The translations under genes were made by a program, and so were the position numbers. A DNA stretch of 64,000 nucleotides from an uncultured Clostridium sp. GTDB taxonomy: Bacteria; Bacillota; Clostridia; TANB77; CAG-508. Each line of letters starts with the position of its first letter. The first letter of the stretch is position 1. This document shows positions 3,643-58,646 of the stretch, piece after piece. The stretch covers positions 1,671 to 65,670 of the forward strand of contig CANDRW010000004.1 of the NCBI GenBank assembly GCA_947388675.1, written 5' to 3'. Under the pieces are notes generated by a model. That model saw only the letters and a list, made by a program, of their open reading frames with translations, did no database searches and was not told the DNA's origin.

Positions 3643-4293
3643 ATGGATAAGGAGAACAAAAAGATGGAAGAAAACACAGCAAATAAATTAGAAAAAGAAG
3701 AGAAAAAATATACTTATGCAGACTTACTAGAAATGGATGACGATAAACGTTATGAAATTATTGATGGAAAGTTATATTTAATGAGTAGTCCAAGAGTAAA
3801 ACATCAAGTAATTGCTGGAGAAATTTATGTACAGCTATCTTTGTTTTTAAGAGGAAAAAAATGCAAGCCTTTTATAGCGCCATTAGATGTAACTTTATCT
3901 AAAGAAAAACAGGATAACAAAATATATAATGTAGTACAACCAGATATATCAGTAGTTTGCAACAGAGAACAACTAAAAGATGAAAGAAAGATAACTGGAG
4001 CACCAAGCTTTGTAATTGAAATTTTATCACCTTCAACTAGTAGAAAAGATAAGTTAGAGAAGATGAATTTATATCAAAAATATGGAGTGAGAGAATATTG
4101 GATTCTTGAACCAGTAGATATGATAGTAACACCATATATTTTAGATGAAAAAGGCTTTTATAAAGCAGAAAAAAATTATGACTTAACAACAGAAGAAATA
4201 CCAGTCAATATTTTACAGGACTGCAAAATAGATTTAAGAGAATTTTTAAAAGAAAATAGTGAATGGATAAATAGTACAGCAGATGTTGAATGA
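3643..4293 (+). CDS. Uma2 (DUF820)-family putative endonuclease
   Basis: 216 aa; resembles Uma2 proteins from memory (YEIIDGKLYLMSSP...HQ...; PDISVV; FVIEILSPST; KMNLYQKYGVREYWIL). Alternative start at 3664. Confidence 0.7.
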   Translation: MDKENKKMEENTANKLEKEEKKYTYADLLEMDDDKRYEIIDGKLYLMSSPRVKHQVIAGEIYVQLSLFLRGKKCKPFIAPLDVTLSKEKQDNKIYNVVQPDISVVCNREQLKDERKITGAPSFVIEILSPSTSRKDKLEKMNLYQKYGVREYWILEPVDMIVTPYILDEKGFYKAEKNYDLTTEEIPVNILQDCKIDLREFLKENSEWINSTADVE

Positions 4294-4320: not shown

Positions 4321-4427
4321 AATAGTGTTAGTTTAGGGACGTATCTTAAACTGACATAAATAGAAGAAAGCATAATAATATAAATAAAATAAATTTATGT
4401 TGGTTTAAGGTACGTCCCTAAACTGAC
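4321..4427. repeat. REP-doublet (REPIN-like) element, alpha subfamily, copy 2
   Basis: Direct repeat of 3507-3613 with mismatches only at 4330 and 4418. Confidence 0.85.
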
Positions 4428-7974: not shown

Positions 7975-8050
7975 TGGGGTATCGCCAAGCGGTAAGGCAT
8001 CGGACTCTGACTCCGACATTTCCTAGGTTCGAATCCTAGTACCCCAACCA
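7975..8050 (+). tRNA. tRNA-Gln (anticodon CUG)
   Basis: Hand-folded cloverleaf: acceptor TGGGGTA/TACCCCA (U1-A72), anticodon arm TCGGA-CTCTGAC-TCCGA, T arm CTAGG-TTCGAAT-CCTAG, encoded CCA. Confidence 0.9.
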
Positions 8051-16364: not shown

Positions 16365-16439
16365 GTGTTAGTTAAGGGACGTATGTTTTTCTGACGAAAG
16401 CGAAGCTTTTGTTGGAAAAACGTATGTCCCTTAACTGAC
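16365..16439. repeat. REP-doublet (REPIN-like) element, alpha subfamily, copy 3
   Basis: GTGTTAGTTAAGGGACGTATGTTTTTCTGAC, spacer GAAAGCGAAGCTTTT, then inverted GTTGGAAAAACGTATGTCCCTTAACTGAC; starts at the base after the TAA stop. Confidence 0.8.
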
Positions 16440-18117: not shown

Positions 18118-18238
18118 TATAACATAAATATGATAAATTTTCTTGTTTTTCAAATGCCCGAGGTAGTCAGCAAGTTCAAAGAAGAAAGTCAACTCGGTAC
18201 CTTTCAAAACTGCGAAAACATATCATATTTACGTTATA
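18118..18238. repeat. long-hairpin intergenic element, family 3, copy a
   Basis: Outer stem TATAACATAAATATGATA / TATCATATTTACGTTATA; core ATTTTCTTGTTTTTCAAATGCCC.AGGTAGTC...GGTACCTTTCAAAACTGC shared with 56364-56478. Confidence 0.75.
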
Positions 18239-18263: not shown

Positions 18264-19004
18264 TTACATTAAATCTTTCATAGTATAATAACCAATCTTC
18301 TGCTTTACTAAGAATTTTGTGGCTTTGATAGCGCCTTCTGCGAAAATAGTTCTAGAATGAGCAGTATGTTTAATTTCTAGGGTTTCATTAGGATTAAAAA
18401 AGAATACCGAATGCTCTCCGACAATATTTCCACCACGAATGCTAGAAAATCCAATTTCTTTTGGATTTCTTTTTTCTCGTTTTTGCATACGATTAAACTC
18501 ATAAATATAGGAACCTTCCGCATTGATACTATTTGCTAATAGGAGGGCAGTACCACTTGGACTATCCTTTTTTTGATTATGATGTGTTTCTACAATTTCA
18601 ATATCTGCTTCTGGTAATTTTTGAGAAAGTTTAGCAATGATTTGACTGACAAGAGTAATTTCATAAGACATATTACTAGATTGGAAAATAGGAATTTGCA
18701 CAGAGGTATCTAAGATTTCATTTTGCTGTTCTTTGGTAAACCCTGTAGTGGCTATAACCATAGGAATATGGTGAGACATACAATAAGGCAAAAGAGAAAT
18801 GGTAGCTTCAGGGGTAGAAAAGTCAATAATAACATCAGGAGATTCTAAAAGAGAGTCTATATTAGGAAAGATAGGGTAGTATGAATTAGAATTGTTATGT
18901 CTGTCGAGTCCTCCTAGTAAGTTCATATCTTTTTCTTGTAAAATTAGCTTAGCAACTTCATTTCCCATTTTTCCACCAATACCATTGATTAAAAGTTTTA
19001 TCAT
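18264..19004 (-). CDS. dapB: 4-hydroxy-tetrahydrodipicolinate reductase
   Basis: MIKLLINGIGGKMG N-terminus and E.HH..K.D.PSGTA motif; start set at 19004 behind an RBS. Confidence 0.88.
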   Translation of the reverse strand: MIKLLINGIGGKMGNEVAKLILQEKDMNLLGGLDRHNNSNSYYPIFPNIDSLLESPDVIIDFSTPEATISLLPYCMSHHIPMVIATTGFTKEQQNEILDTSVQIPIFQSSNMSYEITLVSQIIAKLSQKLPEADIEIVETHHNQKKDSPSGTALLLANSINAEGSYIYEFNRMQKREKRNPKEIGFSSIRGGNIVGEHSVFFFNPNETLEIKHTAHSRTIFAEGAIKATKFLVKQKIGYYTMKDLM

Positions 19005-29339: not shown

Positions 29340-29586
29340 CGAAAAACGAAGAAAAAGAGGAGTAAGTTCAAACTAGCTAGAAAGAGAAAAGAAGTGGATA
29401 CGTTGAGAGCTTCTTATAGAAAAGAGAACTGAAGGTAGCTTTGGAGTTGATAAGGTGAAATAAGAGTAAGCTTATCCGTGTAACTTGCGTTAAAAGGAAT
29501 TGAAGATTTGGCTAACTTATTAGCTAAAATTAAGGTGGTACCGTGAGAAATAATTACCTCGCCCTTATATAGGAGCGAGGTTTTTT
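29340..29586 (+). promoter_or_regulatory. T-box leader (tRNA-sensing riboswitch) with terminator
   Basis: AGTA and GAA S-turn halves around the specifier loop (29431-29437), AGAGA box, T-box AATTAAGGTGGTACCGTG (29528-29545), terminator CCTCGC..GCGAGG plus T6 (29557-29586). Confidence 0.85.
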
Positions 29587-29918: not shown

Positions 29919-30044
29919 ATGTTGCACATGGGGACAGATGTCGCACAAACTATACATCTCACTATGTTCGATTGCATAAGTTATCTGTAACTCACTATGT
30001 TCGAACAGCTAACTTAACGTCCCCATCTGCGACATCTATGTGAC
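29919..30044. repeat. REPIN-like element, beta subfamily (GTCGCAC type), copy 1
   Basis: ATGTTGCACATGGGGACAGATGTCGCAC ... core ... AACGTCCCCATCTGCGAC; reverse complement of 45751-45866 with 23- and 27-nt identical blocks. Confidence 0.8.
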
Positions 30045-30062: not shown

Positions 30063-32741
30063 ATGAGTAATCGTAAGCCATTAGAAGGAAAGTTTGAACC
30101 TAAAAGCTTTGAAGAGAAAATTTATCAAGAGTGGAATGAGAAAGGTTACTTCAAACCATCTGAAGATAAAAGTAAAGAGCCATATACTATTGTAATTCCA
30201 CCACCAAACATTACTGGAAAATTGCATATGGGACATGCTTTAGATGAAACACTACAAGATATTTTAATTAGGTATAAAAGAATGAGAGGGTATAACACAT
30301 TGTGGATACCTGGTACAGACCATGCCTCAATTGCTACGGAAGCCAAGATTGTAGAGAACTTGAAAAAGCAAGGAATTACAAAGGAAGATTTAGGAAGAGA
30401 AGGCTTCTTAGAGAAAGCATGGGAATGGAAAGAAGAATATGGAGGAACTATTTTAAACCAATTAAAAAAATTGGGATGTTCTTGTGATTGGTCAAGGGAA
30501 CGTTTTACCATGGATGAAGGATTATCAAATGCAGTAAAGCATGTTTTTGTAGAGTTGTATAAAAAAGGATTAATCTATAGAGGTAAAAGACTAATTAACT
30601 GGTGTCCTTATTGTGATACTTCTATTTCAGATATAGAGGTAGAGTATGAAGAAGAACCAACACATTTATGGCATATTAAATATCCTATTAAAGGAGAGGA
30701 AGGAAAATATGTTATAGTTGCAACAACAAGACCAGAAACTATGCTTGGCGATACTGGTGTTGCAGTTCATCCAAGTGATGAAAGATACAAAGACTTAGTT
30801 GGTAAAATGGTAGTTTTACCAATCATGAATAAAGAAATTCCAATTATAGCAGATGAATTTGTAGAAACAGAATTTGGAACAGGTGCTGTAAAGCTAACGC
30901 CTGCTCATGACCCTAACGACTATGCAGCAGCTGTTAAACACAATTTGGAAATATTAGAAGTATTTGATGCTAATTTCAAAATGGGAAATTTAGTACCAGA
31001 GTATCAAGGAATGGAATTATTAGAGGCAAGACAAAAAATTGTAGAAAGACTAGAAAAAGAAGGATATTTAATTAAAACAGAAGACTATACACATAATGTA
31101 GGAAAATGCTATCGTTGCCATCATACCATTGAACCACACATTTCAGAGCAATGGTTTGTTAAAATGGAGCCTTTAGCAAAGCCTGCTATTGAAGCGGTAA
31201 AAAACAAAGAAATTAGATTCATACCAGAAAGATATGAAAAAACTTATTTTAACTGGATGGAGAATATTCAAGACTGGTGTATTTCAAGACAAATATGGTG
31301 GGGACATAGAATTCCAGCCTATTACTGTGAAGACTGTGGTGAAGTGATAGTAGCTGAACAAGAACCACAAAAATGTTCAAAATGTGGTAGCATGCATCTA
31401 AAACAAGATGAAGATACGTTAGATACTTGGTTTAGTTCTGCGTTATGGCCATTTTCTACTTTAGGTTGGCCAGACAAAACAGAAGATTTTGAATATTTCT
31501 ATCCAACAAGTACTTTAGTTACTGGTTATGACATCATTTTCTTCTGGGTAGCAAGGATGATTTTTTCAGCCTTAGAGCATACGGGAAAGCCACCATTTAA
31601 AGATGTGTTTATTCATGGAATTGTGAGAGATAGTCAAGGAAGAAAAATGTCTAAGAGCTTAGGAAACGGAATTGATCCATTAGAGATTATTGATCAATAT
31701 GGAACAGATGCCCTACGTTTTTCATTAGTATTAGGTATTTCAGCAGGGAATGATATCCGTTATATGCCAGAAAAATTAGAGCAAGCTTCTAACTTTGCTA
31801 ACAAAGTATGGAATGCAGCAAAGTTCGTAAGTAGCAATTTAGCAGATGAGCAAAAGGTAAGAGATTTTTGTTATGAAGCTTTTGAAAAAAATATGACATA
31901 TGACCCAACATATTTTAGACTAGAAGATAAATGGATTTTGAACAAGTTTGATAAATTAGTAGTAGATGTAACGAAAAACATAGATAATTACGACTTAGGA
32001 ATTGCACTGGATAAGATTTATAGCTTTATTTGGAATGAATATTGTGATTGGTATATTGAAATGGTTAAGCCTAGAATTTATAGTGATGATGATAACATCA
32101 AGGTTCCAGTTAGTGATGTATTAAGTCATATTTTAGCATCCTCTTTAAAGCTATTACATCCATTTATGCCATTTATTACAGAAAAGATTTATTCTCATTT
32201 AATTGTATTTGGAACAGAAGATTTAATTGTAGCAAAATGGCCAGATATGAGAGAAAAGTTTGTCTTTGATAAGGAAGAAGAATTTATAGAAAAATTAAAG
32301 AAACTAATTGTGGAGATTAGAAATGTAAGGGCTACTAGAAATATTCATCCATCTAAGAAGTCAGAGTTGATTTTTGTTACTGACCAATATGAAAGAGAAA
32401 TCAAAGAGGCAGAAGAAATTTTATTAAAATTAGGATTTGGAACAAAGGTAACTATTCAAAAAGATAGAATAGGACTTCCTGAAAATGCAATTACTATTAT
32501 GCAAGATGATATGGAATTATACATGCCATTAGAAGATTTGGTAGATTTAGAAGAAGAGAAAAAGAGATTACAAGAGGAGAAAGCAAAACTAGAAGCAGAA
32601 GTAGCAAGAGGACAAAAAATGCTTTCTAATCCAGGATTTGTAAATAAAGCACCAGAAGCAAAAATTAATGAGGAAAAAGCCAAGCTTGCAAAATATGAGG
32701 AAATGCTTGCAAAAGTGGAAGAGAGATTAGGAAGCTTATAG
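30063..32741 (+). CDS. valS: valine--tRNA ligase
   Basis: 892 aa; HIGH (GKLHMGHA), KMSKS, C-terminal coiled coil. Confidence 0.95.
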   Translation: MSNRKPLEGKFEPKSFEEKIYQEWNEKGYFKPSEDKSKEPYTIVIPPPNITGKLHMGHALDETLQDILIRYKRMRGYNTLWIPGTDHASIATEAKIVENLKKQGITKEDLGREGFLEKAWEWKEEYGGTILNQLKKLGCSCDWSRERFTMDEGLSNAVKHVFVELYKKGLIYRGKRLINWCPYCDTSISDIEVEYEEEPTHLWHIKYPIKGEEGKYVIVATTRPETMLGDTGVAVHPSDERYKDLVGKMVVLPIMNKEIPIIADEFVETEFGTGAVKLTPAHDPNDYAAAVKHNLEILEVFDANFKMGNLVPEYQGMELLEARQKIVERLEKEGYLIKTEDYTHNVGKCYRCHHTIEPHISEQWFVKMEPLAKPAIEAVKNKEIRFIPERYEKTYFNWMENIQDWCISRQIWWGHRIPAYYCEDCGEVIVAEQEPQKCSKCGSMHLKQDEDTLDTWFSSALWPFSTLGWPDKTEDFEYFYPTSTLVTGYDIIFFWVARMIFSALEHTGKPPFKDVFIHGIVRDSQGRKMSKSLGNGIDPLEIIDQYGTDALRFSLVLGISAGNDIRYMPEKLEQASNFANKVWNAAKFVSSNLADEQKVRDFCYEAFEKNMTYDPTYFRLEDKWILNKFDKLVVDVTKNIDNYDLGIALDKIYSFIWNEYCDWYIEMVKPRIYSDDDNIKVPVSDVLSHILASSLKLLHPFMPFITEKIYSHLIVFGTEDLIVAKWPDMREKFVFDKEEEFIEKLKKLIVEIRNVRATRNIHPSKKSELIFVTDQYEREIKEAEEILLKLGFGTKVTIQKDRIGLPENAITIMQDDMELYMPLEDLVDLEEEKKRLQEEKAKLEAEVARGQKMLSNPGFVNKAPEAKINEEKAKLAKYEEMLAKVEERLGSL

Positions 32742-33702: not shown

Positions 33703-33720
33703 AAAATAGTATTTTAATAG

Positions 33721-33902
33721 AATTAGGCTTATGATAGTATGATTATGCAGTAGCGAGTGGAGTAGCGTTAGTTACGACCCCGAATACAACTGAGTTATAG
33801 AATGCTATAATTCAGCTAAAAAATGACCTGTTTTTTAGCTGAATTATTGCATTCTATTAGGAAGTTGTACAACGTAATAATCATACTATCATAAGCCTAA
33901 TT
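33721..33902. repeat. 182-bp nested palindrome (singleton long-hairpin element)
   Basis: Perfect 26-bp outer stem AATTAGGCTTATGATAGTATGATTAT / ATAATCATACTATCATAAGCCTAATT; inner 15-bp stem AATTCAGCTAAAAAA / TTTTTTAGCTGAATT. Confidence 0.8.
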
Positions 33903-33931
33903 CATTTTAGAAGAATACTTTATATATCCTA

Positions 33932-38501: not shown

Positions 38502-39233
38502 ATGCAGGAAGACTATGCAAATAATAATTTAGATGTGATAGAGGCACAATCAGGAAATCAAGAGGCAATGCAGAAATTAATTGATAGAAACAAAGGGCTT
38601 ATTTGGAGCATTGTCAAAAGGTTTCAAGACAGAGGATATGAACTAGAAGATTTATACCAAGTGGCAGTTATGGGATTTATTAAATGTATTAAAAGATTTG
38701 ACGCAAGCTTTGAAGTTCAATTAACTACTTATGCAGTTCCATATATTTTAGGAGAAGTTAAAAGATATCTTCGTGATGATGGACCAGTAAAAATTAGTAG
38801 GAGCATTAAGGAATTAGCCATGAAAGCACTAGAAGAACAAAAAGAATACTATAGGAGAACAGGAAAAGAGATAAAAATAGAAGAACTAGCAGAAATATTA
38901 AACACTTCTAAAGAAGAGTTGACTTTAGCAATGGATGCATTTAGACCAATGGAGTCTATTTATCAACCTGCTTATGAAGGTGATGAAGAAGGAATTTGTT
39001 TGTTAGATAAAATAGAAAGTGGGACAAATCAAGAAGAAATGATTAGTAATCGACTTTGTATACAAGAGGCACTAAAAAATTTACAAGACCAAGAAAAGCA
39101 AATTATTGTTTTGAGGTATTATAAAGGAAAAACACAGACAGAAGTTGCCAAGATTTTAGGAATTACACAAGTGCAAGTTTCGCGAATAGAGAAGAAGACT
39201 TTGGAAAGAATGAGGACGAAGTTGGCTGTTTAA
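38502..39233 (+). CDS. sigF: sporulation sigma factor F
   Basis: Sigma-70 regions 2-4 (DLYQVAVMGFIKCIKRFD; TQTEVAKILGITQVQVSRIEKK); position directly after spoIIAB. Confidence 0.88.
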   Translation: MQEDYANNNLDVIEAQSGNQEAMQKLIDRNKGLIWSIVKRFQDRGYELEDLYQVAVMGFIKCIKRFDASFEVQLTTYAVPYILGEVKRYLRDDGPVKISRSIKELAMKALEEQKEYYRRTGKEIKIEELAEILNTSKEELTLAMDAFRPMESIYQPAYEGDEEGICLLDKIESGTNQEEMISNRLCIQEALKNLQDQEKQIIVLRYYKGKTQTEVAKILGITQVQVSRIEKKTLERMRTKLAV

Positions 39234-39250
39234 ATATCTATAGTTAATAC

Positions 39251-39422
39251 AATTTGAATATATCTATGATAGCGTTTGACCTTGTAGGTCGCAAACCACC
39301 AAATGTATAAGGAAATCAAAGATTTCCTGTACAAATTATATGATGGTTGCTCCAATCGCCCTACGCTTTGCTTCGGTTGGTCGCTACGCGGTCTTCACTT
39401 TTATCATAGATATATTCAAATT
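39251..39422. repeat. long-hairpin intergenic element, family 2, copy B
   Basis: Perfect 21-bp outer stem AATTTGAATATATCTATGATA / TATCATAGATATATTCAAATT; core shared with 50497-50637. Confidence 0.8.
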
Positions 39423-39442: not shown

Positions 39443-40438
39443 ATGAAAAAGTATATTATATATTTTTTGATATTTCTAGCATTGTGTTTTTTGATTCCTA
39501 TACTATTTACTAAATCTTTCAAAAAGGCACAAGAAACCAATATACCTCAAAATGAAGAGGTTATTCCAAAAGTAACTTATGATTACAAAAAATATAAAAC
39601 AGTGAAGTTATATCATAAAAAGACCAAAAAGGTGGAAGAACTTTCTTTAGATGAGTATTTATATGGAGTGGTAAGTAGTGAAATGCCAGCAAGTTTTGCA
39701 GAAGAAGCTTTAAAAGCACAAGCAGTAGTGGCAAGGACGTTTACTTTATATAAAATTGTGCATAATAGTAAAAAACATGAAAATGCAGATATTTGCGATG
39801 ATTCTACTTGTTGCCAGGCATGGATTAGTAAAGAAGATAGATTAGCTAGATGGGATGATAGCAAAAAAACAGAGTATTGGAACAAAATTGTGAAAGCTGT
39901 GAATAGTACGCAGGGAAAAATGATAACTTATAATAATGAACCAATTAATGCTTTTTTTCATTCTAATAGTGGAGGAACAACAGAAGCGCCTATCAATGTA
40001 TGGGGAGGAAGCGGATACCCCTATTTGAAGGCAGTTACAACTTCAGGAGAGGATGCATATAGTCAATATGCTTCTAATGTAACTGTTACCCAAAAGCAAT
40101 TTACAGAAACAATCCAAAAAGTACATAAAGATTTTAAGATTGATTTTAGTAAAAAAGATTGCATTAAAGTAAAAGAATATACAGAGGGAAATAGGGTAAA
40201 GACAATACAAGTAGGAAATCTTTCTTTGTCTGGTGTTGAAATGAGAACTCTATTTGGACTTCGTTCTGCAAATTTTAAAATTACCATGGAAAAGCAGAAT
40301 ATTAAATTTGAAGTAACAGGATATGGGCATGGCGTAGGGATGAGCCAAACAGGTGCAGATAGTCTAGCAAAGCAGGGGAAAACATATGAAGAAATTATCC
40401 ATCATTTCTATACAGGAGTAGAAGTAAAGGATATTTAA
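39443..40438 (+). CDS. spoIID: stage II sporulation protein D (SpoIID/LytB domain)
   Basis: N-terminal TM helix; LDEYLYGVVSSEMPASFAEEALKAQAVVARTF; HSNSGGTTE; GHGVGMSQTGA. Confidence 0.85.
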   Translation: MKKYIIYFLIFLALCFLIPILFTKSFKKAQETNIPQNEEVIPKVTYDYKKYKTVKLYHKKTKKVEELSLDEYLYGVVSSEMPASFAEEALKAQAVVARTFTLYKIVHNSKKHENADICDDSTCCQAWISKEDRLARWDDSKKTEYWNKIVKAVNSTQGKMITYNNEPINAFFHSNSGGTTEAPINVWGGSGYPYLKAVTTSGEDAYSQYASNVTVTQKQFTETIQKVHKDFKIDFSKKDCIKVKEYTEGNRVKTIQVGNLSLSGVEMRTLFGLRSANFKITMEKQNIKFEVTGYGHGVGMSQTGADSLAKQGKTYEEIIHHFYTGVEVKDI

Positions 40439-44900: not shown

Positions 44901-45792
44901 TGCTAAAAAAGATTTAATGAAAGAATTACAAGGAGTAGAAGAAAAAGAAGAAACAGAAATTACAAAATTAATTCAGGAAGAAGTGGAAAAACAAAAAGAT
45001 ACTAACCTTTCTGAATTAAGACAAACTTTAGAATGGAAATATGTTTATGAAGTAGATACAAAACTTCCAACCAAAACTTCTGTAACCAAGTTAAAACAAG
45101 AACAGGCAAACCAGCTTCCTTCTTTAGAAATCCAAGCAAATTGGGAGAAAGAAGAAACAAGCGATAATGAATTTGAGGCAAAAGAAATGCAGTATATACA
45201 AGTAAAACCGTTAGAAAGTGAAGAAAAAGCTAAACTAACCCCAGCACAAAAAGGAACTTTAGTCCACTTGTGTATTCAAAAATTAGATGAAAGAAAAGAA
45301 TATGAAATACAAGACATTCAAAATTTAGTTCAAGAATTAGTGCAAAAAGAAATCATTACAGAAATAGAGGCAAATGCAATAGACGTTAATTTAGTATATA
45401 GCTATACAAAATCAGAACTATTCCAAGAATTAAAAAAAGCAAAAGAAATCCACAAAGAGCAACCATTTTATATCAATATGCCAGCAAAAGAAATTTTTAG
45501 AGAAGCAAAGGAGGTAGGCTCTGAAAAAAATATTTTAGTACAAGGTATGATAGACTTATATTATATAGATGAGCAAGACCAATTACATTTAGTAGATTTC
45601 AAAACAGACTATGTGCCAAAAGGAAAAGAAAAACAAGTGGCTCAAAAATATCAAGTTCAAATGGATATATACCAAAAAGCATTGGAAGAAGCACTAGGCA
45701 AAGAAGTTACAAGTGCAAAGATTTGCTTAGCAAATTGTGAGTGGCAATGTGTCGCACTTGGGGACGTTAAGTTAGCTGTTCGAACGAAGTGA
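41980..45792 (+). CDS. addA: ATP-dependent helicase/nuclease subunit A
   Basis: UvrD-type AAAGSGKT, DEYQDSN, C-terminal RecB nuclease GMIDLYY..VDFKTD; last ~14 codons lie in a REP element. Confidence 0.9.
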   Translation: MGEVKWTTEQLQAIESKGSNILVAAAAGSGKTAVLVERIIHKIIDDKMDIDKLLVVTFTNAAAAEMRERILEAIYKELEQDPANEHLQKQITLLNKASICTIHSFCLDVIRNHFYEIDLPSNFRIAEPTEIDLLKQEVLEDLLEQKYIDQDSDFLELLETYTGYRGDEPLQELILSIYRFIQSSPFPEKWLQEKVEQFHVDASLDFGKTVLGKVILEEVQEELDGSLLKLKKVQEELEKFLECSKFYQAVSEDILQIEEVVGLTNSWNEVYQKIHQISFGKWPVDKKVSLDIKEEAKEIRDRVKKDIKEKVAGLMSHTSEEIAKDFEVLYPILQKLAKIILEFSESFKEKKREKNCIDFNDIEHLALKLLLDENGNKTQVSKKYEEKFEEIAIDEYQDSNLVQEAILTSISKGNNIFMVGDVKQSIYKFRQARPELFLQKYARYQTKEEKQEADDLKIQLFRNFRSRNNILDITNLVFEAIMSEKLGDIIYNENEYLNYGANYPEPEKSQSNVKENEWTDLTVKQNKSELEENYAGIAELNVIDMKEDDTITAVIGEEEEEENNDRIEDDVLEARFVAKRIKDLLQSEYQVYDRKKGYRQIEPKDIVILLRATSTLAPIYEKELSDYDLPVFSDSSTSYLESVEIETILSILKLINNPMQDIPLVVVLRSSIAQMTDNELITIRLTDRNCNFYEALIKTRISCEEPLKSKIEAILEKLEKWRAQSEYLPLDELIWQIYLDTGYYQYVGLLPNGEMRQANLKTLFEKAKQYETASFKGLFHFIQFIEKLKKQNGDLSSAKLIGESANVVRIMSIHKSKGLEFPVVFLSHTHKKFNLRDLNEVILMHQDLGLGPTLIDTAKKLKYTTTAKKAISLKIKQETLSEEERILYVALTRAKEKLIITGRSKDFQKALQEKEKNLAIYAESEDCKIDYKLMKKCSSYLDWLTYVYLFHQGKTVSLKGKQLELRDIITLKTFAKKDLMKELQGVEEKEETEITKLIQEEVEKQKDTNLSELRQTLEWKYVYEVDTKLPTKTSVTKLKQEQANQLPSLEIQANWEKEETSDNEFEAKEMQYIQVKPLESEEKAKLTPAQKGTLVHLCIQKLDERKEYEIQDIQNLVQELVQKEIITEIEANAIDVNLVYSYTKSELFQELKKAKEIHKEQPFYINMPAKEIFREAKEVGSEKNILVQGMIDLYYIDEQDQLHLVDFKTDYVPKGKEKQVAQKYQVQMDIYQKALEEALGKEVTSAKICLANCEWQCVALGDVKLAVRTK

Positions 45793-45866
45793 GTTACAGA
45801 TAACTTATGCGACGGAGCAAAGCGAAGTGTATAGTTAAGTGCGACATATGTCCCTCTGTACGACAT
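45751..45866. repeat. REPIN-like element, beta subfamily, copy 2
   Basis: GTCGCACTTGGGGACGTTAAG...AAGTGCGACATATGTCCCTCTGTACGACAT; inverted relative to 29919-30044. Confidence 0.8.
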
Positions 45867-46253: not shown

Positions 46254-46364
46254 GATGCTGTTAAAAGCAATGAAGTTAGTTTTTATCTAGAAATATAGTG
46301 GAAAAAATGATATAGTAGTAAAAATTAATAGGGGGCAAATATTCAAGTGAAAGGTAGGAGTATT

Positions 46365-46949
46365 ATGCCCCGAAATTGTAGAGAAAATCAAAAATCTTAT
46401 ACAGGAATTTATCATGTTATTCTTCGTAGTATCAATCAACAGGAGATATTCTATGACGATATAGATAGAAGAAAATTTTTAAAAGAAACAAAAGAGAAAT
46501 ATCATTATGATTTATATGCTTATGTTCTAATGCATAATCATGTTCATCTAGTGATAATGGATAAAGAAGATAAACTATCTAAAATTATTCAATCATTAGC
46601 AATTAGTTATGCACTGTATTTTAATAAAAAATATAATAGAATAGGTCATGTATTTTACAATCGATTTAAAAGTAAATATATAGAAAATTTACCATATTTA
46701 TTAAATGTTATTAGGTATATACATTTCAATCCAGAAAAAGCAGGGATATGTCAGGATTCAAAATCTTATTGGAGTAGTTATCATGAATATTTTCACTTTT
46801 CCAAATTAGTTGAAACTGATAATGTGCTAAAGATGGCTGGGATGAATAAAAAGGATTTTGAAATTTTTCACATAGAATATGAAAAAATAAAAGGCTATGA
46901 AAAATGTCGTACTAAGAGACAGATGTCGCACTTAACTAACGTCCCCTAG
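46365..46949 (+). CDS. HUH/Y1 transposase, IS200-like, REP-associated (RAYT-like)
   Basis: YHVILRS, HUH motif LMHNHVHLVI, GHVFYNRFKS, Tyr motif RYIHFNPEKAG; GGTAGGAG RBS; 3' end formed by a REP unit. Confidence 0.8.
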   Translation: MPRNCRENQKSYTGIYHVILRSINQQEIFYDDIDRRKFLKETKEKYHYDLYAYVLMHNHVHLVIMDKEDKLSKIIQSLAISYALYFNKKYNRIGHVFYNRFKSKYIENLPYLLNVIRYIHFNPEKAGICQDSKSYWSSYHEYFHFSKLVETDNVLKMAGMNKKDFEIFHIEYEKIKGYEKCRTKRQMSHLTNVP

Positions 46950-46955
46950 TGCGAC
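46904..46955. repeat. minimal REP unit, beta subfamily, copy 3
   Basis: ATGTCGTACTAAGAGACAGATGTCGCACTTAACTAACGTCCCCTAGTGCGAC: left and right ends of the 116-bp element joined without the core. Confidence 0.75.
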
Positions 46956-46971: not shown

Positions 46972-49900
46972 ATGTCAAATTTTGTACACTTGCACATCCA
47001 TAGTGAGTTTAGCTTACTAGATGGAGCAAATAGAATAAAAGACTTACCAGTAAGAGCAAAAGAATTAGGAATGGATGCTATGGCAATTACAGACCATGGT
47101 GCTATGTTTGGTGCTATTGATTTTTATAAAGCATGTAAAGCCAATGGAGTAAAACCAATTATTGGTTGTGAGGTTTATGTGGCACCACGTTCTAGAACAG
47201 ATAAAGACCCTAATTTGGACGCTAGATACAGTCACTTAATTTTATTGGCTAAAAACAATGAAGGGTATAAAAACTTAGCGAAATTAGTATCTTTAGGTTA
47301 TACAGAAGGTTTTTATTATAAACCTCGTATTGACCATGAAGTTTTAGAACAATATCATGAAGGGCTTGTTTGTTGTAGTGCTTGTTTAGCAGGTGAAGTC
47401 AATCAAGCGATTTTGGCAAATGACATGGAAAAGGCAAAAGAGGTAGCTTTATGGCATAAGTCTATTTTTGGAGAGGACTACTATTTAGAAATTCAACATA
47501 ATGGAATTAATGAGCAAGTTTTAGCAAATCAGAAGTTAATTCAACTTTCTAGAGAATTAGACATTCCACTAGTTGCAACTAATGATGCTCACTACCTAAA
47601 GAGAGAAGATGCATATAACCATGAAGTGTTGCTTTGTATTCAAACTGGAAAGCGTATGACAGATGAAGATAGAATGAAGTTTGACACAGATGAACTCTAT
47701 GTGAAGTCACCAGAAGAGATGAGTGCATTTTTCAGTAATGTACCAGATGCCATAGAAAATACAGTAAAAATTGCAGAAAAGTGTAATGTGGAGTTTGAAT
47801 TTGGTCATACGATTTTACCAAATTATGATGTACCAGAGGAATTTAAAACTCACTATGATTACTTAGAAAAGTTAACATTGGATGGTATGCAAGAGCGTTA
47901 TGGTGATAACATTACAGAAGAAATGCAAGAGAGAATGAAGTTTGAACTAGGTGTTATTAACAAAATGGGATATGTGGATTACTTCTTAATTGTATGGGAT
48001 TATATCCATTATGCCAAAACACATGATATTCCAGTAGGGCCTGGTCGTGGTAGTGGTGCGGGTTCTATTGTTGCGTATGCGATTGGGATTACAGATATTG
48101 ACCCCATTGCCTATGGACTTCTTTTTGAGCGTTTCTTAAACCCTGAAAGAATTAGTATGCCTGATTTTGACGTTGACTTTTGTTATGAAAAAAGAGACAA
48201 GGTAATTGAATATGTAGAGCAAAAATATGGGAAAGACCATGTTTCTCAGATTATTACATTTGGAACCATGTCAGCTAGAATGGTAATTCGTGATGTGGCA
48301 AGAGTACTAGATTTGCCATATGCAGAAGCGGATAAATTAGCGAAAATGATACCAAACGAATTACATATTACGATTGATAAAGCATTAGAAAAGAATAGAG
48401 AACTAAAAGATTTATATGAATCAGATGAATCGATGAAGAAATTATTGGATATTGCAATGGCGTTAGAGGGAATGCCAAGACAGGCTTCTACTCATGCTTG
48501 TGGTGTAATTATTGCAAGAGAGCCAGTTGTGAACTATGTTCCATTGTATGCTAGAGATGGCATTGTTTCCACACAATATATTATGACTACATTAGAAGAA
48601 TTAGGACTTCTAAAGATGGACTTTTTGGGGTTACGTACGTTAACAGTTATTCAAGATACGATTGATTTAGTCAAGAAAAATCAAGGAATTGATGTGAAAT
48701 TTGACGAAAAAATGAATGACCCTAAAGTGTATAAGTTATGGCAAAATGGAGAGTCTGTAGGAATATTCCAGTTTGAAAGTCAAGGGATGACAAACTTTAT
48801 GAAGGAACTAAAGCCAGACTGTTTGGAAGATATTATCGCTGGTGTATCGTTGTATCGTCCAGGACCAATGGACCAAATTCCAAGATATATTGCCAACAAA
48901 AAGGATCCAGAACATGCAGTATATACTCACCCATCTTTAAAGCCGATTCTAGAAGTTACTTATGGTTGTATGGTTTATCAAGAGCAAGTTATGCAAATTG
49001 TAAGGGATTTGGCAGGATATTCACTTGGTAGAGCGGATTTAGTAAGAAGAGCCATGGGGAAGAAAAAGCTAGAGGTTATGGCAAAAGAAAGGGAAATCTT
49101 TATCCATGGACAAGTAGACGAAAATGGAAATGTTGTTGTTCCAGGGTGTGTTAGAAATGGTATTGATGAGCGATCAGCAGATAAAATCTTTGATGAGATG
49201 GCTGAGTTTGCAAAATATGCTTTCAACAAGTCACATGCAGCAGCTTATGCAGTAGTATCCTACAGAACAGCATACCTAAAAGCATATTACCCAGCAGAAT
49301 TTATGGCGGCAATGCTGAATAGCTTTTTAGGTAACCAAGATAAAATTCCAGGATATGTGGAAGAGTGCAAAAGATTAGCTATTGAAATATTAAAACCAGA
49401 TATTAATAAAAGTGATACCAAATTTACAGTAGATAAAAATCAAATTCGTTTTGGTATGGGAAGTATCAAGAATGTGGGAACTGATGCTGTAGATAATATT
49501 GTGTCAGAGCGAGAAAAAAATGGAGATTACAAGGATTTTAGTGATTTTTGTGAAAGAATTAAGGACTTAGGAGTTAATAAAAAGTGTGTGGAAAGTTTGA
49601 TAAAATCTGGAAGTTTTGATAATTTAGGACAGACTAGAAAAACACTGATTGCATCTTTTGAAAAAATTATAGATATGATTTCTGATAGTGGAAAGAAGAG
49701 TTTTGACGGGCAAGTTTCTATGTTTGATTTAGGTGGAAGCAAAGAAGTAGAAGAAATGAAATATACTTACACAACACTTCCAGAATATGAACCAAAAGAT
49801 TTACTATCTATGGAAAAAGAAATGCTAGGTTTATATATTTCAGGTCATCCACTTGAAAATATGAGAGAACAAATTGAAGCAAAGACCAATATTAATACCT

Positions 49901-50484
49901 TTCAATTAAGGCAAATTAGTAGCGAAAATGAAATGAGCTTAGAAGAACAAGGAGAATTCAAAAGAGAGCAAACCTATGAAGAACATCAAACAGAATTTAA
50001 AGATGGACAAAATGTTACTTATGCTGGGATCATAACAAGTGTAAAAAAGAAATATACAAAGAACAATAAACTAATGGCATTTGTTACCATTGAAGATTTA
50101 TATGGTCCAACAGAATTTATTGTATTTGATAGTTGCTATCAAGCATGTAGCAGTGTACTAATAGAAGAAAATATTGTTATTGTAGAAGGAAGATTAAGTA
50201 TACGTGAAGATGAAGAGCCTAAGATTGTAGCAAAAACCATTACTCCTTTTACAGAAAATAAAGCGAAAGTATTTGAAATAGATATTACAGAATTAAATGA
50301 AGAGATGAGAAACAAATTAAAGGGAGCAATTTACTTCTTCCAAGGAGATAAGAATAATATTCAGTTACAAATTGTAAATGGAGAAAAGGTAGATAAAGCT
50401 GGTGGCATTTATATGACACCAGAGATTTTGAAACAATTTGAAGAACTAGTGGGAGAAGAAAAGGCGCAAATCAAGGAAGTTTAA
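46972..50484 (+). CDS. dnaE: DNA polymerase III alpha subunit (DnaE type)
   Basis: PHP domain HLHIHSEFSLLDG, PDFDVDF, FNKSHAAAYA; 1170 aa. Confidence 0.95.
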   Translation: MSNFVHLHIHSEFSLLDGANRIKDLPVRAKELGMDAMAITDHGAMFGAIDFYKACKANGVKPIIGCEVYVAPRSRTDKDPNLDARYSHLILLAKNNEGYKNLAKLVSLGYTEGFYYKPRIDHEVLEQYHEGLVCCSACLAGEVNQAILANDMEKAKEVALWHKSIFGEDYYLEIQHNGINEQVLANQKLIQLSRELDIPLVATNDAHYLKREDAYNHEVLLCIQTGKRMTDEDRMKFDTDELYVKSPEEMSAFFSNVPDAIENTVKIAEKCNVEFEFGHTILPNYDVPEEFKTHYDYLEKLTLDGMQERYGDNITEEMQERMKFELGVINKMGYVDYFLIVWDYIHYAKTHDIPVGPGRGSGAGSIVAYAIGITDIDPIAYGLLFERFLNPERISMPDFDVDFCYEKRDKVIEYVEQKYGKDHVSQIITFGTMSARMVIRDVARVLDLPYAEADKLAKMIPNELHITIDKALEKNRELKDLYESDESMKKLLDIAMALEGMPRQASTHACGVIIAREPVVNYVPLYARDGIVSTQYIMTTLEELGLLKMDFLGLRTLTVIQDTIDLVKKNQGIDVKFDEKMNDPKVYKLWQNGESVGIFQFESQGMTNFMKELKPDCLEDIIAGVSLYRPGPMDQIPRYIANKKDPEHAVYTHPSLKPILEVTYGCMVYQEQVMQIVRDLAGYSLGRADLVRRAMGKKKLEVMAKEREIFIHGQVDENGNVVVPGCVRNGIDERSADKIFDEMAEFAKYAFNKSHAAAYAVVSYRTAYLKAYYPAEFMAAMLNSFLGNQDKIPGYVEECKRLAIEILKPDINKSDTKFTVDKNQIRFGMGSIKNVGTDAVDNIVSEREKNGDYKDFSDFCERIKDLGVNKKCVESLIKSGSFDNLGQTRKTLIASFEKIIDMISDSGKKSFDGQVSMFDLGGSKEVEEMKYTYTTLPEYEPKDLLSMEKEMLGLYISGHPLENMREQIEAKTNINTFQLRQISSENEMSLEEQGEFKREQTYEEHQTEFKDGQNVTYAGIITSVKKKYTKNNKLMAFVTIEDLYGPTEFIVFDSCYQACSSVLIEENIVIVEGRLSIREDEEPKIVAKTITPFTENKAKVFEIDITELNEEMRNKLKGAIYFFQGDKNNIQLQIVNGEKVDKAGGIYMTPEILKQFEELVGEEKAQIKEV

Positions 50485-50496
50485 TATTTTAAATAA

Positions 50497-50637
50497 TTTT
50501 AATATATCTATAATATCGTTCGAACTTGCTGGTCGCAACCTTCCTATTTCAAAAAGGATGGTTGCTCCAATCGTCCTACGCTTACGCTTCGGTTGGTCGC
50601 TGCGCGTTCTTCACTTTCTATTATAGATATATTAAAA
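50497..50637. repeat. long-hairpin intergenic element, family 2, copy C
   Basis: Perfect 19-bp outer stem TTTTAATATATCTATAATA / TATTATAGATATATTAAAA; core GGTCGCAACC..GGTTGCTCCAATCGTCCTACGCTT..CGGTTGGTCGCTGCGCG..TTCACTTT. Confidence 0.8.
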
Positions 50638-50676: not shown

Positions 50677-50889
50677 ATGGAAAATAAGATTGTGTATTTA
50701 AAAACATATATTATTACAATTTGCTTACTAGTATTGCTATTTTTAGTTGGGATAGGTGGTTGTGTATATTACTATGAAAATAGAATAGCAGAACTTGAAA
50801 ATGGCATTGATGCTAACCAGAGCCAAAACAGTGGGATTAGTATTGTTCCAGAGGGTGATACTGATGTTAATAATGTAACAGCTGAATAA
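50677..50889 (+). CDS. small membrane protein (hypothetical)
   Basis: GGGAGG RBS and one TM helix. Confidence 0.4.
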   Translation: MENKIVYLKTYIITICLLVLLFLVGIGGCVYYYENRIAELENGIDANQSQNSGISIVPEGDTDVNNVTAE

Positions 50890-56363: not shown

Positions 56364-56478
56364 AGCTATAATAGTGTTGATTTTCTTGTTTTTCAAATGC
56401 CCAAGGTAGTCGGCATGCGCAAAGAAGTAAGTCAACTTGGTACCTTTCAAAACTGCAAAAATGAATACTATTATAGCT
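56364..56478. repeat. long-hairpin intergenic element, family 3, copy b
   Basis: Outer stem AGCTATAATAGT / ACTATTATAGCT; core shared with 18118-18238. Confidence 0.75.
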
Positions 56479-58266: not shown

Positions 58267-58604
58267 CCTTTCTTAATAATAGTATTACAGTAAGTAATTG
58301 CTCCAATTATATCATATAAAAATGAGAAAGTATAGAAAATTATGAATTAAAATAAAATAAAATCTAATCTAATTTATTTCAATCTCCTTATTGACATTGA
58401 ATTTTTTATTTTGATGATTATAAGCTTTTCTTTAAAACGGTGCCAATAAATGATGTGTTTGAAATGATTGAAACTCATTTTTAAACTGGGCAAGAAGATA
58501 GAATTGACATTATTACAATAGGTAGTTAGAAAAGATGAGAATGCGCATTATTTCACATTAACAGAAGAAAACTACAAATTTATTTAGGGATGAGGGCAAT
58601 GCGA

Positions 58605-58644
58605 TATAAGAGTAGGAAACTTTCTTAAGTTTCCTACTCTTATA
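58605..58644 (+). terminator. orphan 16-bp perfect hairpin upstream of the trpS promoter
   Basis: TATAAGAGTAGGAAAC, loop TTTCTTAA, GTTTCCTACTCTTATA; weak U-tract. Confidence 0.35.
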
Positions 58645-58646
58645 TC

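Follow-up and report, generated by a model that had tools for sequence, protein, structure and literature searches.

Short palindromic repeats tend to be written off as junk, or else they are mistaken for structured RNAs. Judged by analogy, the described systems closest to the one reported here are REPINs and bcr1. REPIN hairpins often show compensatory changes, and singlet REPs are remnants of REPINs (PMC3116915). In the Bacillus cereus group, bcr1 is a mobile, non-autonomous repeat of ~155 bp whose genomic distribution differs among close strains; it is co-transcribed with the genes around it, and its double-stranded structure is preserved by compensatory changes (PMC3184786).

Here we describe a family of long hairpins, family 2, in a 64-kb stretch of DNA (the window) and in other genomes. 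Family 2 resembles REPINs in that it consists of intergenic hairpin repeats of ~100 bp or longer with compensatory changes, singlet remnants and lineage-specific sequence, in that a mechanism based on single-stranded DNA and an HUH enzyme is proposed, and in that the genome also carries a RAYT-type gene, whose position is conserved. Unlike REPINs, family 2 is not made of two inverted copies of one REP; it has an asymmetric core, different boxes and unlike hairpins, its conserved parts are subterminal and it varies over the outermost 20 bp, a different REP family lies on either side of the RAYT gene and the copy number of family 2 appears low (three in 64 kb). Family 2 resembles bcr1 and the group A bcr repeats as a non-autonomous Firmicute repeat with compensatory changes and a patchy presence in close strains. 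In contrast to bcr1, which has 5-bp direct repeats at its ends and is a cruciform of two independent stem-loops, family 2 lacks a clear duplication and has a single long outer stem that closes a three-way junction, and the two have no sequence similarity.

MITEs such as Correia/nemis, ERIC, RUP and BOX are, like family 2, small and intergenic with terminal inverted repeats, and when co-transcribed they form long RNA hairpins with a possible effect on mRNA processing. The termini of MITEs are conserved, bound by a transposase and accompanied by target duplications; in contrast, the termini of family 2 drift and pairing alone is kept. IS200/IS605 ends and ORF-less PATEs are strand-specific single-stranded DNA elements that are read via subterminal hairpins and short guide/cleavage sequences rather than terminal repeats; IS200/IS605 elements have a replication-linked orientation bias, make no target duplication and have no long enclosing terminal inverted repeat. 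Set against these elements as they are generally described, family 2 may resemble them in being strand-specific, with subterminal hairpins and an orientation bias. It differs in being enclosed by a long repeat, and no TnpA, TnpB or omega-RNA features were found. Because family 2 departs from REPINs on two criteria and from MITEs in the conservation of termini, we placed it with palindromic non-autonomous repeats and in no named family. It looks like a repeat that has not been described before, akin to REPIN/MITE-type repeats rather than a new functional RNA.

Three copies of a long hairpin in the window

A first-pass annotation had reported three copies of a long-hairpin element in the window, and direct reading together with an inverted-repeat scan bore out their places. 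The fold consists of an outer stem (P1), an asymmetric internal loop, a helix (P2) and a junction with two hairpins (P3 and P4). The copies and their parts are as follows.

1174-1316, + strand: copy A, between gap (159-1160) and pgk (1343-2698)
1174-1193 and 1297-1316, + strand: arms of copy A, 20 nt, 100% in the inverted-repeat scan
1197-1207, + strand: left box of copy A, GTTTGACCTTG
1280-1295, + strand: right box of copy A, ACGCGGTCTACACTTT
39251-39422, + strand: copy B, the element under study, whole, between sigF (38502-39233) and spoIID (39443-40438)
39251-39271, + strand: left arm of P1 of copy B (AATTTGAATATATCTATGATA), 21 nt, perfectly complementary to 39402-39422
39274-39287, + strand: left conserved box and 5' strands of P2 of copy B (GTTTGACCTTGTAG)
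39291-39350, + strand: hairpin P3 of copy B, with basal stem GCAAACCA/UGGUUGC and distal hairpin GGAAAUC-AAA-GAUUUCC
39352-39380, + strand: hairpin P4 of copy B (CCAAUCG...CGGUUGG)
39384-39401, + strand: right conserved box and 3' strands of P2 of copy B (CTACGCGGTCTTCACTTT)
39402-39422, + strand: right arm of P1 of copy B (TATCATAGATATATTCAAATT), 21 nt, 100%
50497-50637, + strand: copy C, between dnaE (46972-50484) and a 70-aa ORF (50677-50889)
50497-50515 and 50619-50637, + strand: arms of copy C, 19 nt, perfect
50518-50528, + strand: left box of copy C, GTTCGAACTTG
50602-50617, + strand: right box of copy C, GCGCGTTCTTCACTTT

All three copies are on the + strand, and their outer stems are AT-rich and, as first described, perfect over 19–21 bp, with the arms of 20 nt (A), 21 nt (B) and 19 nt (C) paired without a mismatch. 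The inverted-repeat scan extended the arms of copy C to 22 nt at 95% (50494-50515/50619-50640). The differences between the arms of copies B and C had been quoted exactly and both are compensated, and copy A indeed has a stem of different sequence that is again perfect. The interior of copy A holds two inner hairpins. With an nhmmer profile and a covariance model we found exactly three family-2 copies in the window, and a box search found no solo boxes of the family there. Perfect inverted repeats of ≥19 bp with a spacer of ≤200 bp occur five times in the window as compared to 0 in 100 first-order Markov simulations. By sequence reading, no T-run lies downstream of copies A, B or C, in agreement with the lack of a U-tract noted earlier.

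Fold and conserved boxes

Family-2 elements are 143–177 bp long, the three window copies measuring some 140–170 bp, and the fold z-scores of copies A to C on the + strand are –7.3 to –8.4. The outer inverted repeat is Watson-Crick paired over 19–25 bp and its sequence is lineage-specific. The internal loop is conserved and asymmetric, with 5' CGUUU facing 3' CUNCACUUU. The subterminal boxes of the family, CGTTTGNCC on the left and CGCGGNC-NN-CACTT on the right, pair as the short helix P2, which is GACC/GGUC followed by U-G, G-C and N-N. Common to copies A, B and C are the left box GTT(T/C)GA(C/A)CTTG and the right box CGCG(G/T)TCT(A/T)CACTTT. The conserved core blocks that were originally listed hold for copies B and C, but copy A has only GTTTGACCTTG and ACGCGGTCTACACTTT in common with them. 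The left and right boxes are unlike each other (CGTTTGACC... as compared to ...CGCGGTCTNCACTTT), and the inner hairpins are also unlike each other. Across the family the boxes are the most conserved parts and the termini the least conserved; arm identity between species is 0.37–0.58, which is the background level, while the boxes are conserved.

The distal hairpin of P3 (GAAAUC-NNN-GAUUUC) is present in copy B and in the related loci L005 and L008, and has another sequence in L002. The interior hairpin of copy B (~39300-39340) had been called copy-specific; it is also in L005 and L008 and represents the distal part of P3 in its ancestral form.

No conserved promoter or terminator was found in the family-2 core among the window copies and relatives. 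We rejected a promoter reading, with the TTGACC box as –35 and TATAAT in the arms, because it is not kept across species, and we rejected a terminator reading, with GGTCGC..GCGGTC and a T-rich tail, because only copy B, L008 and one solo have such a layout.

Relatives in other genomes

A two-anchor pattern scan of one genome per species gave at least eight loci, of which six were real, and all six are from uncultured Clostridia MAGs of 27–33% GC. At least seven independent full-length family-2 sequences were recovered. Copy A has its orthologs in two of these loci, L001 and L004, and copy B has one in L007. The divergent copies L002 (after rpoB), L005 (upstream of rsmA) and L008 (between accD and accA) keep the boxes, and their outer stems are unrelated in sequence and again 17–24 bp long and essentially perfect.

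An Rfam search had been proposed as a check for a known RNA family; Rfam 15 gave no match at the gathering threshold, and at E up to 10 there were chance-level matches only. A pattern scan of IMG/VR gave no family-2 match, and among the matches listed for the JGI metagenomes there were only high-GC chance ones. BLAST against plasmid and phage collections gave no family-2 match. With covariance model R1, neither the window beyond its three copies nor ~0.5 Mb of related loci yielded another copy, and a parent insertion sequence with family-2 ends was not found in the window, in the ~0.5 Mb of loci or in the plasmid and phage collections. Within the collections covered, family 2 occurs solely in a narrow clade of low-GC, spore-forming gut Clostridia that are uncultured.

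Turnover at orthologous spacers

Orthologous spacers were retrieved via Gap, AddA and AccD homologs. The gap-pgk site is filled in the window, L001, L004, L032-37 and L047-49. In L012-L021 (Gap 98% identical) there is no element at this site and the 83-nt spacer has a different GC-rich hairpin sequence, which in L012 is probably a hairpin of family 1 (described below). In L022 there is no element and a plain AT hairpin. At the sigF-spoIID site, a B-type copy is present in the window, L007 and L050. In L023 (AddA 88%), the copy at this site has an A-type interior with P2 GTCC/GGAC, and its 20-bp stem is perfect and 70% identical to that of copy B, with all differences compensated. The sigF-spoIID site is empty in L028, L029 and L030 (88%) and in L025-27 (72%), where the spacers are 27–66 nt. 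At the dnaE site, the window is the only filled one; the L023 spacer is 3 nt long, and L028 has a family-1 REP hairpin instead (about 18925-18975).

Between close relatives, then, orthologous spacers are filled, empty, or occupied by another subtype or another repeat family, and the insertion polymorphism that the first-pass annotation had suggested looking for is seen as presence and absence at gap-pgk, sigF-spoIID and dnaE. For full-length copies, none of the empty sites was perfectly clean; in relatives at ~88% protein identity the spacers have diverged too far to give base-exact boundaries.

At the sigF site, the right arm is similar over its distal 7–12 nt to the spacer found in empty alleles; this similarity may reflect extension of the arm into the flank or, equally, deletion remnants. 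We rejected insertion of the core into the loop of a pre-existing hairpin, since empty sigF-spoIID alleles have no hairpin and since, in species X (next section), arms travel with the core and solos have the same arm. We also rejected arms that are purely target-derived, as copies B and C have common arms at different loci and arms move with the core.

Two further observations concern these spacers and operons. In L025 (7207-7272), G/T-rich GTTAGAAGTTAGAG-type short tandem repeats follow sigF, with no hairpin element. In the window, a gene for a Uma2-family putative endonuclease (3643-4293) lies between tpi and gpmI of the glycolytic operon; this gene is present in the window, L032-35 and L047 lineages and absent from L012-L021.

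Inversion, core loss and solo right ends in species X

Species X is represented by L008 and L038-L044, with AccD 97–100% identical. We found three alleles at its accD-accA spacer. In allele 1 (six contigs), a full copy is antisense to the operon. In allele 2 (L043), the core is sense between the same arms and P3 is deleted. In allele 3 (L044), the arms and a 16-nt remnant of the left box form a mini-hairpin. The flank and arm haplotype of L043, with its sense core, is identical to that of L039, in which the core is antisense, indicating that the core was inverted between the arms and not newly inserted. The evidence for inversion comes from two contigs, L043, which is cut at the element, and L044.

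Species X also has solo right ends, each a unit of ACGCGGTCTNCACTTT, the right arm and a ~25-nt tail. The accC-accD spacer contains one or two of them in tandem, and the fabG-fabF spacer contains a 78-nt solo right-end insertion as compared to clean 20-nt empty alleles. No solo left ends were seen in species X, and the outgroup L045 (82%) is without a full copy, inversion or solo units at these sites. The three polymorphisms of species X occur in nearly all combinations among strains, indicating fast turnover.

Other repeats were seen near these genes. In L038 (9874-9973; also in L008, L039 and L044), the second accC-accD solo is enclosed by a separate 20-bp inverted repeat (AATAAATTGTTACTAGATAA / TTATCTAGTAACAATAAATT), which makes a new long hairpin with half an element inside. 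In L045 (7316-7529), tandem units of ~45 nt lie between fabF and accB, with no hairpin element.

Orientation and operon context

All copies are intergenic and lie in short spacers, directly past the stop codon of one gene and 25–45 nt ahead of the next co-directional gene. Sense copies are 5–35 nt past the stop codon and 25–45 nt ahead of the next ribosome-binding site. Their orientation is that of the coding/leading strand at seven of the eight scorable sites (GC skew about +0.2), and the eighth (accD-accA) is polymorphic. Solo right ends are oriented as their flanking genes. The orientation bias has a binomial P of about 0.04, which is weaker if the two sigF copies are one event, and it is only suggestive. 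Together with the presence of a Y1 gene in the genome, it lends indirect support to a Y1 HUH transposase acting on one strand. With this orientation, the sense strand of the element is the one that the lagging-strand template exposes, which is expected for single-strand DNA transposons from the biology of IS200/IS605.

Sense copies in operons are almost certainly co-transcribed. Their transcripts would contain a double-stranded RNA stem of ~20 bp, and this stem could be an RNase III site or a barrier that affects mRNA stability. Effects of this kind on mRNA processing or stability would likely be side effects.

A candidate enzyme and other hairpin families

The window contains one transposase-like gene and several other hairpins and repeats.

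46347-46949, + strand: IS200-like / RAYT-type Y1 transposase gene (Y1_Tnp PF01797, 43.6 bits)
4327-4427 and 16367-16439: family-1 REPIN-like hairpins, GTTAGTTnAGGGACGTAT... in inverted pairs
18118-18238 and 56364-56478: family 3, with a conserved ~80-nt core ATTTTCTTGTTTTTCAAATGCCC...CCTTTCAAAACTGC
33720-33903: nested element with 27-nt perfect arms and a 130-nt interior
29940-30031 and 45751-45845, in opposite orientations: ~95-nt repeat with GTCGCAC/GTGCGAC-type ends
29340-29569: T-box leader (109 bits) upstream of the valyl-tRNA synthetase gene (30063-32741)
7975-8050: tRNA-Gln(CTG) gene
58603-58646: perfect 20-bp hairpin with a 4-nt loop (GATATAAGAGTAGGAAACTT / AAGTTTCCTACTCTTATATC), upstream of the tyrosyl/tryptophanyl-tRNA synthetase gene

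The Y1 protein matches the NCBIfam model for the REP-associated tyrosine transposase below the cut-off. Its HUH (HNHVH) and RYIHFNP motifs are intact, and it is C-terminally shorter by ~70 residues as compared to orthologs of 260–264 aa. In L023, L028 and L029 the orthologs occupy the corresponding position, upstream of dnaE. The window yielded no further transposase or recombinase. A link of the HUH enzyme to family 2 would be plausible by analogy; the Y1 gene is flanked by GTCGCAC/GTGCGAC REP hairpins (45751-45845 and 46925-46955) and not by family 2, which leaves the mobilising enzyme of family 2 unproven. It had been speculated that the GGTCGC motif of family 2 echoes the GTCGCAC of the beta REPs; neither alignment nor context lends this any support, and the flanks of the RAYT gene belong to a different family.

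Family 1, which fills the spacer between dnaE and the ORF in L028, also flanks the RAYT orthologs, where the flanks in L023, L028 and L029 carry its GTCAGTTTAGGGAC REPs. Family 3 has a layout like that of family 2, with outer arms that are unrelated between the two copies and complementary within each. A relation between the family-3 core and the family-2 left box was rejected, the similarity being at chance level. The interior of the nested element contains a palindrome (33785-33869) with 39-nt arms at 87% and has no sequence relation to family 2. Of the ~95-nt repeat, one copy is directly upstream of valS and the other directly 3' of addA.

Covariation, strand symmetry and competing explanations

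To quantify covariation we used 11 sequences, in which the 19 pairs of P1 amount to 209 cells. P1 is 98.6% paired; both sides have changed in 18 of the 19 pairs, no pair has changed on one side only, and the exceptions are one G-U and three mismatches among the 209 cells. Over the whole structure there are 73 doubly changed cells as compared to 22.9 ± 3.4 after shuffling, and none of 500 shuffles reached 73. When partners were slid as a control, we counted 4–12 doubly changed cells. P1 pairing is certainly maintained, and the earlier claim that pairing is kept while the sequence drifts now extends well beyond the two changes on which it was based. P2 is compensated in copy C (GACC/GGTC to GAAC/GTTC, C-G to A-U) and in L023 (GACC/GGTC to GTCC/GGAC, A-U to U-A), its third pair alternates between U-A and C-G among sequences, and its U-G pair is invariant. 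In MFE folds, G-U pairs make up 22 of 451 pairs in the sense strand and 19 of 455 in the antisense strand. Antisense energies are equal or slightly lower with RNA and DNA parameters, and the RNA strands are within a few kcal/mol of each other. The near-absence of wobble intermediates and the strand symmetry point to a DNA element and away from an RNA gene.

A functional structured RNA would be a cis-acting element for processing or stability, or a small RNA cut out in the 20-bp stem, that spread as a repeat and is kept by RNA selection. Several observations favour it: P1-P2 and two hairpins are conserved across species, P2 is compensated and P3 stems differ yet pair, the boxes and internal loop are conserved and non-palindromic, the P2 U-G is invariant, the copies inside operons are mostly sense and the fold z-scores are strongly negative. 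Conservation of the three-way-junction core and of the P2 U-G could equally reflect an RNA function, and the Bacillus repeat bcr1, which is transcribed and has compensatory changes, is a precedent (PMC3184786). However, there is one G-U in 209 outer-stem cells, and the antisense strand folds equally well or better with equal use of G-U. In six contigs the full copy runs antisense to the acc operon, in others it is flipped, core-deleted and right-end-only derivatives persist, and presence at essential operons differs among near-identical strains; there is also no Rfam match and no conserved promoter or terminator. We consider a functional RNA unlikely. The first-pass annotation had offered a structured RNA and a single-stranded DNA hairpin as two options. 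Of these, the single-stranded DNA element fits better with the gain and loss, inversion, decay, near-lack of G-U in P1 and strand symmetry, and the RNA is disfavoured. We regard it as quite unlikely that either families 2 and 3 form an undescribed class of structure-specific mobile elements, in which a folded single-strand core is recognised and the outer stem of ~20 bp is regenerated or extended at each site by copying of the opposite arm and part of the flank, or the core is a new three-way-junction RNA motif cut from operon transcripts.

Very unlikely, in our estimate, is a classical MITE, that is, a deleted derivative of an insertion sequence with terminal repeats bound by a DDE transposase and with target-site duplications. 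Its terminal inverted repeats, small size, intergenic multi-copy occurrence and insertion polymorphism are all found in family 2, and weak direct-repeat matches lie beside copies B and L005. These matches are imperfect, AT-rich and extend over 6/8 positions only (TTAATAC/TTAAAAC in B, ATTAGTTA/ATTAATTT in L005), no target-site duplication was found in A, C, L008 or L023, and there are no defined cleavage sites either; no target duplication is convincing. Conservation is lowest at the termini and highest in the subterminal boxes, and wherever one arm differs the other is changed to match, a pattern that transposase binding would not predict; the initial view that an ordinary transposase-bound terminal repeat fits poorly stands. 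Moreover, no cognate insertion sequence was found in ~0.5 Mb of related DNA, plasmids and phages, and solo right-end insertions do not fit two-ended cut-and-paste.

In an inverton, a recombinase would flip the core between the inverted repeats and alter expression of the downstream gene. A segment of 100–135 bp between perfect inverted repeats of 19–25 bp, directly upstream of genes, has the right form, and at accD-accA both orientations occur in contigs with the same flank haplotype, at one of eight sites and between samples, not within a single one. At every other site, all contigs seen have a single orientation. The flipped alleles show decay as well, the surroundings hold no recombinase gene and the core has no conserved promoter or terminator. 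A conserved multi-copy core and solo ends are also not features of invertons. We rate this explanation as highly improbable. The chance that the copies are unrelated intrinsic terminators or random palindromes is practically nil, even though they lie downstream of genes in an AT-rich genome with many simple hairpins, because the copies have core boxes in common, lack a T-run, exceed simulation in perfect inverted repeats of ≥19 bp (5 as compared to 0 in 100) and have homologs in other species.

Proposed mechanism and implications

We favour, with a probability of roughly 0.6, the explanation that family 2 represents a mobile DNA element, small, palindromic and non-autonomous, which belongs to a narrow clade of gut Clostridia and is handled as a folded single strand. 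Gain and loss, subtype swap, core inversion, core deletion and one-ended copies argue for a DNA element and not an RNA gene. With the element handled as a folded single strand of DNA, its arms may be homogenised at the DNA level, by template switching within the strand or by repair templated on the hairpin in the course of replication or transposition, and this would give perfect compensated arms and core inversion without RNA selection via G-U intermediates. At inverted repeats, template switching is known to homogenise arms, to introduce multibase compensatory changes all at once and to flip the spacer (PMC8794818, PMC8604942). Template-switch mutagenesis accounts for perfect arms, compensated differences without G-U intermediates, arm extension and spacer inversion; as a mutational process, it leaves dispersal to new loci and conservation of the core unexplained.

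The conserved asymmetric boxes and positionally conserved hairpins imply that a sequence- and structure-specific reader is needed, and by analogy the most economical candidate would be a single-strand-specific transposase. More tentatively, the element might be moved in trans by an HUH/Y1 enzyme specific for single strands, which is the mode suggested for REPINs and RAYTs, and the inner hairpins and boxes might be the features that such an enzyme recognises.

The very strong 'covariation' of family 2 is best explained at the DNA level, which calls for caution in RNA-motif discovery pipelines. With family 2, this genome has a second family of hairpin repeats besides the REPs that go with its RAYT, and such systems are unstudied in this lineage. 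Its insertions lie inside essential operons (gap-pgk, rpoB-rpoC, accD-accA and dnaE) and vary among near-identical strains. These insertions may serve as strain markers, and they may alter the processing of operon mRNAs.
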